A stretch of 64,000 nt of DNA from a virus, in IMG/VR virus record IMGVR_UViG_3300002307_000002, positions 1-64,000 of that record, one strand, 5' to 3'. Under the pieces are notes generated by a model. It worked only from the letters and a program-made list of their open reading frames with translations, was not told where the DNA came from and did no database searches. Made by a program: the position numbers and the translations under genes. Shown here piece by piece: positions 46,792-46,993 of this stretch (the stretch's first letter is position 1; every line of letters begins with the position of its first letter).

Positions 46792-46993
46792 AGAACAGCA
46801 GTATTCATAGGACAACATCTAACGTCTGGGAAGTGGTTCGATGCCATGGGATGGCCAGTTGCTACGACTGGTGTCTGAGTGGATGTAGTTATCCAAAGAC
46901 CGTATGCGTACTAAAGTTGGGTTGAACTGTACGTGAAAGCGTGTGCCAAGGTATGAAACTTACCAAATAATTACTGTAGCAAGCTGCTGTTCT
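46792..46993 (+). ncRNA. ~200-nt end-paired multi-hairpin RNA
   Basis: 10-bp closing helix AGAACAGCAG/CTGCTGTTCT; several internal hairpins. Confidence 0.6.

Follow-up and report, generated by a model that had tools for sequence, protein, structure and literature searches.

Between two tRNA-like genes of a freshwater phage we found a separate non-coding block of 202 nt (positions 46792-46993, plus strand), whose core and closing-helix strands are kept in one close relative with the middle swapped, and which carries a T arm that is not due to chance. As the leading explanation, held with slightly less than even confidence, these sequence comparisons suggest a small phage RNA that is modular, has a conserved T-arm core and would be made from the transcript of a tRNA island. 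The element appears comparable in kind to RNAC and RNAD of the T4 tRNA region (PMC3014915). A preceding sequence-only reading had described it as a multi-hairpin RNA rich in T-loop motifs; what was listed stands as sequence, whereas a multi-hairpin fold rich in T-loops cannot be upheld.

The window, i.e., the whole stretch of DNA analyzed here, comprises the first 64 kb of a complete IMG/VR record of 91,265 bp with direct terminal repeats. The terminase is about 31% identical to crAss-like phage terminases, and the source is an uncultured freshwater crAss-like phage. Among public runs, the only full-length holder is a freshwater metagenome that is possibly the record's own source sample (run X1), while run X3 has only an identical contig of 154 nt; neither is independent. 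Up to about 39.7 kb, structural genes are encoded on the minus strand. The genes from 40 kb on lie on the plus strand, which bears a methyltransferase-like gene, DNA polymerase A and helicases, and also several tRNA-model matches. All genes and RNA genes around the element lie on the plus strand, and its setting is given by the following features:

45701-46315, plus strand: methyltransferase-like gene upstream of the element
46560-47250, plus strand: RNA-gene island containing the element
46717-46789, plus strand: upstream tRNA gene, termed tRNA1 (cmscan, 48 bits)
46998-47112, plus strand: downstream tRNA-like gene, termed tRNA2 (cmscan, 31.9 bits)
47201-47248, plus strand: hairpin with a 12-bp perfect inverted repeat, followed by a T-run
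50800-51261, plus strand: tmRNA
58652-58931, plus strand: group I intron (84.7 bits), which divides a UvrD/RecD-like helicase gene into 58062-58667 and 58963-59850

The hairpin at 47201-47248 with its T-run is likely the terminator of the plus-strand transcript of the island; a simple terminator scan missed it because its loop has 16 nt. In promoter scans, no sigma-70-type or Bacteroidota-type promoter stood out near the island. Elsewhere in the window, a 170-nt tRNA-model match at 42410-42579 (36.8 bits), in which about 100 nt replace the anticodon and variable region, is another expanded tRNA-like gene of the phage. An 86-nt tRNA-Gly called by ARAGORN at 3068-3153 lies inside a minus-strand ORF of 2357 aa, has no Rfam tRNA match and is probably a false positive.

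The tRNA-model matches confirmed that tRNA-like genes lie on either side of the element. In tRNA1, the acceptor, D and T arms are intact and the anticodon loop is abnormal, with 6 or 8 nt (CTAATA, enclosed by an A-T pair); ARAGORN assigned it a two-base anticodon. In tRNA2, which has ACTT on either side of the gene, an insert of 56 nt replaces the normal anticodon and variable region. Both genes keep acceptor stems of 7-8 bp and canonical T arms, and acceptor stem and T arm are the recognition determinants of RNase P. tRNA1 has no encoded CCA; its acceptor strand is followed by the discriminator C46789 and then by C, A, A. The element starts 2 nt past this discriminator and ends 4 nt short of tRNA2. 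It had been said to begin on the base after the CCA of the upstream tRNA, but this 'CCA' is composed of the discriminator C and the CA that follows it. In the position that tRNA1 takes here, the relative L003 has a 162-nt tRNA-model match (L003:4607-4768) with a large insert of about 90 nt before the T arm. In both, an A-U pair encloses an anticodon loop of 6 nt, and CTAA is common to the two loops (CTAATA in tRNA1, TTCTAA in L003).

The element itself contains stop codons in all six frames, in agreement with its description as non-coding. Reading of the sequence together with inverted-repeat and pairing checks recovered all motifs of the sequence-only reading in their places, and the pairing segments ATCT and GGAT are present as well. 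Its parts are as follows:

46789-46887, plus strand: conserved core, holding the T arm and the CCAGT hairpin
46792-46801 with 46984-46993, plus strand: closing helix of 10 perfect pairs
46810-46816 with 46888-46894: nested helix GGACAAC/GTTATCC
46833-46847, plus strand: T arm GTGG-TTCGATG-CCAT with a 4-bp stem, a 7-nt loop and a G-C closing pair
46855-46871, plus strand: hairpin CCAGT-TGCTACG-ACTGG with a 7-nt loop
46888-46969, plus strand: variable middle domain, holding both UGAAA hairpins
46922-46938, plus strand: tRNA2-like copy, 15 of 17 positions identical to the tRNA2 start (46996-47012)
46930-46943: UGAAA hairpin TACG-TGAAAG-CGTG
46950-46964: UGAAA hairpin GGTA-TGAAACT-TACC
46970-46994, plus strand: conserved 3′ block, consisting of a tail with GTAGCAA and the 3′ strand of the closing helix (46984-46993)

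The T arm belongs to no cloverleaf. For the tRNA2-like copy, which was detected by local alignment, about 2 of 500 shuffles reached the score (p ~0.004). This segment, which is overlapped by one of the UGAAA hairpins, also takes part in an inverted repeat with the 3′ acceptor strand of tRNA2, and it, at least, looks like tRNA-derived material. T46859, which closes the CCAGT strand of the stem, and the first six loop bases of the CCAGT hairpin (46859-46865) are perfectly complementary to the tail at 46976-46982, beside the closing helix (TTGCTAC/GTAGCAA, 7 bp Watson-Crick). This is the second-longest complement in the element, of a length that is not statistically unusual. Judged by complementarity, the two segments could form a tertiary pairing, which, if real, would explain why this tail is kept in the relative described below.

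For comparison, public contigs were mapped onto positions 45700-47700. This revealed one close relative, represented by a contig of 92,415 nt (92 kb) in run X2 and here called X2. Relative to the window, its sequence is arranged as follows:

46309-46563: replaced by 1016 nt
46564-46639: kept apart from 3 differences
46640-46788, including tRNA1: replaced by 379 nt
46789-46887: kept apart from 2 differences in 99 nt
46888-46969: replaced by 49 nt
46970-46994: kept without differences
46995-47114, including tRNA2: replaced by 5 nt (ATTTC)
47115-47167: kept without differences
47168-47247: replaced by 5 nt
47248-47371: kept apart from 5 differences

The island of X2 is thus a mosaic with five replacements or deletions in about 700 nt, and the contig joins over each gap. 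With 46789 as their first and 46994 as their last position, the kept blocks of the element agree to 1-3 nt with the limits first proposed; therefore, the element is a separate unit as the sequence-only reading had it, and its ends coincide with the closing helix. Both strands of this helix lie in kept blocks with the interior between them swapped, and X2 has the element without either flanking tRNA. In the alignable part of the element 2 of 124 positions differ, versus 50 of 609 (8%) in the methyltransferase-like gene (Fisher p=0.006). At third codon positions of that gene, at least 25 of 203 differ (p=0.0003 versus the element). Compared with the adjacent gene and with the third codon positions therein, the divergence of the alignable element is hence 5-8 times lower. 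This low divergence fits both purifying selection and a recent cassette exchange in a recombination hot spot.

Several further differences and conserved pieces were observed around the element. The tRNA2 segment (46995-47114) is a clean presence/absence difference between the phage of the window and X2. An 82-aa ORF without family match at 46312-46560 faces the 1016 other letters in X2, which indicates a gene-sized cassette swap. The block at 46564-46639 (about 76 nt) is RNA-like, with two hairpins (z=-2.45) and no Rfam match. Positions 46559-46639 are about 90% identical in the relatives L002, L004 and L020, although the neighboring protein is only 64% identical, and the block is probably a conserved functional RNA or a regulatory site. 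Directly after it, a second orphan T arm without cloverleaf is found at 46643-46653 (GAGG-TTCGACT-CCTC); it has the same 11-mer as the T arm of the phage tmRNA, but different flanks. The 53 nt at 47115-47167, identical in X2, form an extended hairpin (z=-4.14).

To judge the motifs against chance, their frequencies and folding energies were compared with expected values or shuffled sequences. For the T-arm signature GGTTCRANNCC, the window has 7 occurrences versus 0.75 expected; 6 of these 7 lie in plus-strand RNA genes and 4 within 46643-47101. Therefore, the T arm at 46833-46847 is tRNA-derived or tRNA-mimicking and not accidental. This canonical T arm is the only listed motif that is better than chance. 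It alone stands statistically and persists in X2, so that 'rich in T-loop motifs' is not supported as a description of the element. The closing helix alone is not significant, as perfect 10-bp inverted repeats whose arms are 50-300 nt apart are found 23 times in the window. Perfect helices of at least 6 bp number 3 in the element versus 3.1 expected for shuffled sequence, which is the chance level.

The folding energies do not support a multi-hairpin fold rich in T-loops either. The whole element has z=-2.46, which is due to the closing helix, because compared with shuffled sequences the parts show no folding excess (z=-0.11 for the 5′ 96 nt and -0.10 for the 82-nt middle). In the thermodynamic ensemble, only the closing helix (p 0.97) and the CCAGT/ACTGG hairpin (p 1.00) are favored, and the probability is about 0 for the nested helix, the T arm and both UGAAA hairpins. 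The nested helix was thus correctly located, but with one C/A mismatch it has only 6 of 7 pairs and practically no ensemble probability. The UGAAA hairpins, proposed as T-loop modules, moreover belong to the domain that in X2 is replaced by 49 unrelated letters. A structure built in the manner of the sequence-only reading has -30.1 kcal/mol compared to -63.9 kcal/mol for the minimum free energy (MFE) structure, and the latter depends on pairings between core and variable domain that X2 cannot keep. Sliding-window folding z-scores did not single out the locus; these scores are uninformative, since the known tmRNA was likewise not singled out.

The 169-nt version in the X2 contig is the only homologue of the element that was found. 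With blastn against GenBank phages, the 711-nt island gave no match at E<=1e-5 and the element only chance matches at E<=10. Exact and gapped patterns from the element and both flanking tRNAs revealed no other copy in IMG/VR, and a pattern scan of JGI metagenomes revealed no other copy of the element. Of two pattern scans of GTDB genomes, one was empty and the other gave one chance match, in a GC-rich MAG of the Trueperaceae and at a site without a tRNA; an origin of the T arm as the 3′ half of a host tRNA is thus unsupported by these scans. The relatives were chosen by the upstream methyltransferase-like gene, which they have in common with the phage at 35-64% identity. A search of 19 related loci by nhmmer yielded no homologue, and a single-sequence covariance model of 46792-46887 returned only the self-match from the phage's own genome, the full records of four relatives and nine loci. 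Anchoring on the conserved upstream RNA and on the terminase led to one lineage only, in which the element is absent. This nearest lineage (L002/L004/L020; terminase 88% and methyltransferase-like protein 64% identical) keeps the 80-nt upstream block (46559-46639) and has neither the tRNAs nor the element.

Known RNA classes were examined as well. As the sequence-only reading had anticipated, no family could be assigned: Rfam 15 gave no match on the element at gathering thresholds, none at E<=10 within 1 kb and none at E<=10 on 207 nt alone. A tRNA, including circularly permuted forms, was rejected, as there was no cmscan tRNA match and ARAGORN found 0 genes in 154 permutations at a lowered threshold. 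Also rejected were a retron msr-msd, with the reverse transcriptase family PF00078 unmatched anywhere in the genome, and an antisense RNA to the phage genome, the longest complementarity being 11 nt and thereby at chance level. For YrlA-type Y RNAs, RF02553 did not match at the element, and its sole weak match in the genome lies at 79261-79376 (14 bits versus a cut-off of 69). The motif GNCGAA(N0-1)G is absent from the 5′ 45 nt of the element. Furthermore, no TROVE/Ro60 gene was found in the complete 91-kb phage genome (PF05731 unmatched); the host could have one.

In the scheme that we infer for transcription, processing, stability, tertiary fold and target of the small phage RNA, the element would be co-transcribed with the neighboring tRNA-like genes. 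It would consist of a 5′ core of 96 nt with the canonical T arm and a stable 5-6-bp hairpin, an exchangeable middle domain and a conserved 3′ end of 24 nt, with the 10-bp helix linking both ends. Its 5′ end could be freed by 3′ processing of tRNA1 and its 3′ end by an RNase P cut at 46997/46998, and the paired ends might shield it from exonucleases. The T arm, perhaps with the GGG run immediately upstream of it as D-loop partner, would form a tRNA-elbow-like surface offered to a tRNA-recognizing factor of host or phage. The release by tRNA processing that had been suggested earlier is plausible in the phage of the window, but this route is not conserved, as X2 has no tRNA2 and 379 other letters at the place of tRNA1.

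The small-RNA reading is based on the block boundaries, the low divergence and the kept helix strands with swapped interior in X2. Also, it draws on the excess of the T-arm signature, the plus-strand context with a terminator-like hairpin, the RNase P determinants of the tRNAs and the precedent of T4. Against it speak the folding data, with neither half folding better than shuffled sequence, a T arm of ensemble probability near 0 and an MFE structure that needs core-variable pairings lost in X2. Likewise, the variable domain has partly the appearance of a copied tRNA2 fragment, and the element is wholly absent from relatives with 64% identity in the methyltransferase-like protein and 88% in the terminase. 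The low divergence of the element could also reflect recent cassette exchange and not selection, given the five indels in 700 nt of this mosaic region.

The main rival is that the element is a non-functional spacer, tRNA-gene debris from cassette recombination, i.e., a scar with an orphaned T arm, a partial tRNA2 copy and a chance 10-bp repeat; we judge this quite possible, though not probable. Such a scar would be in line with the commonness of 10-bp inverted repeats (23 in the window), the chance-level helix count and missing thermodynamic signal in the halves, the 15/17 copy of the tRNA2 5′ end inside the variable domain and the second orphan T arm at 46643-46653. The five replacements or deletions in X2 and the failure to find a homologue elsewhere in IMG/VR, JGI metagenomes, GTDB and GenBank phages point in the same direction. 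Debris would, however, not be expected to have alignable parts that diverge 5-8 times less than the adjacent gene and the third codon positions therein, to keep both helix strands and a 14-nt tail around a swapped interior, or to persist as a unit in X2 without either flanking tRNA. Alternatively, the element could be a cis-acting structure of a polycistronic precursor that insulates the tRNA-like modules or guides an endonuclease, the excised piece having no role. It abuts tRNA1, lies 4 nt from tRNA2, and its helix puts the 3′ end of tRNA1 beside the 5′ end of tRNA2. Yet X2 keeps the element though tRNA2 is absent and the tRNA1 region replaced, and 10 bp are shorter than the usual substrate of RNase III, so that we regard this role as distinctly unlikely.

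Perfect 10-bp terminal inverted repeats would also suit a small MITE-like mobile DNA, which we consider very improbable, because the element is single-copy in the 91-kb genome, has no transposase context, is found at the same site in X2 and lacks a flanking direct repeat (the left flank ends with TTTACCA, the right one starts with ACTTGAA). Hardly credible at all is a YrlA-type Y RNA, i.e., a tRNA mimic binding Ro60. The order of stem, T-type stem-loop and second stem-loop in the element only loosely recalls the order V-T-AS-D of these RNAs (PMC4201824), and against it stand the missing RF02553 match, the absence of GNCGAA near the 5′ end, of a recognizable D-type stem-loop and of TROVE/Ro60 in the phage, and a size of 202 nt versus 80-130 nt for known Y RNAs.

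Going beyond the small-RNA reading, the element might represent a new class of modular phage RNA, in which a conserved tRNA-elbow mimic is joined to an exchangeable peripheral domain and serves as decoy or adaptor for a host tRNA-recognizing factor, as one of several non-decoding tRNA-like RNAs in the island. The mimic would be the orphan T arm with its GGG partner, locked by the closing helix and the loop-to-tail pairing, and a tRNA-targeting defense nuclease or a processing or modification enzyme are examples of candidate targets. We regard this wider proposal as unlikely, the tRNA-elbow decoy role being something that we purely infer.

Among known systems, the small RNAs of phage tRNA regions, a descriptive kind and not a sequence family, are closest. 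From its tRNA region, T4 produces the small RNAs RNAC and RNAD (species 1 and 2), for which no role is known and which presumably arise from the same precursors as the T4 tRNAs (PMC3014915). Like the element, these are small non-tRNA RNAs among phage tRNA genes whose role is unexplained, and the element is correspondingly a same-strand, non-tRNA, non-coding unit inside a tRNA cluster. Similar 'stable RNAs' come from the tRNA region of phage T5. In contrast to RNAC and RNAD, the element belongs to a crAss-like freshwater phage, is known here from DNA alone, and combines a closing helix and an orphan T arm with a swappable middle domain; the likeness is one of kind, and none of sequence would be expected. 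With YrlA it shares a stem of paired ends enclosing a T-arm-like stem-loop followed by another stem-loop, and the character of a tRNA-derived mimic that is not a decoding tRNA. [quoted passage not shown] GNCGAA(N0-1)G near its 5′ end is the presumed contact to Ro60 (Chen et al. 2014, PMC4201824). The element has the T-type arm and the following hairpin, whereas no GG-loop D-type stem-loop closes within its conserved block; without model match, GNCGAA motif and nearby Ro60 gene, it is also twice as large. To tRNA (RF00005) it is linked by a T arm with a G53-C61-type closing pair and a TTCGANN loop, and by the 17-nt stretch that matches the acceptor/D-arm start of tRNA2; unlike tRNA, it has no cloverleaf and no tRNA-model match at E<=10.

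If the element is debris, it shows the turnover of tRNA cassettes in phage genomes, and also that T-loop-like hairpins picked by eye carry little weight as evidence. Should it be a real RNA, an uncultured freshwater crAss-like phage is added to the few phages whose tRNA clusters contain unexplained non-tRNA RNAs, a question open since RNAC and RNAD of T4. It would then also provide a natural experiment, with a conserved core and a swappable domain, with or without flanking tRNAs. Together with its abnormal tRNA-like neighbors, such an RNA would make this an island that is possibly aimed at the tRNA biology of the host and not at decoding.
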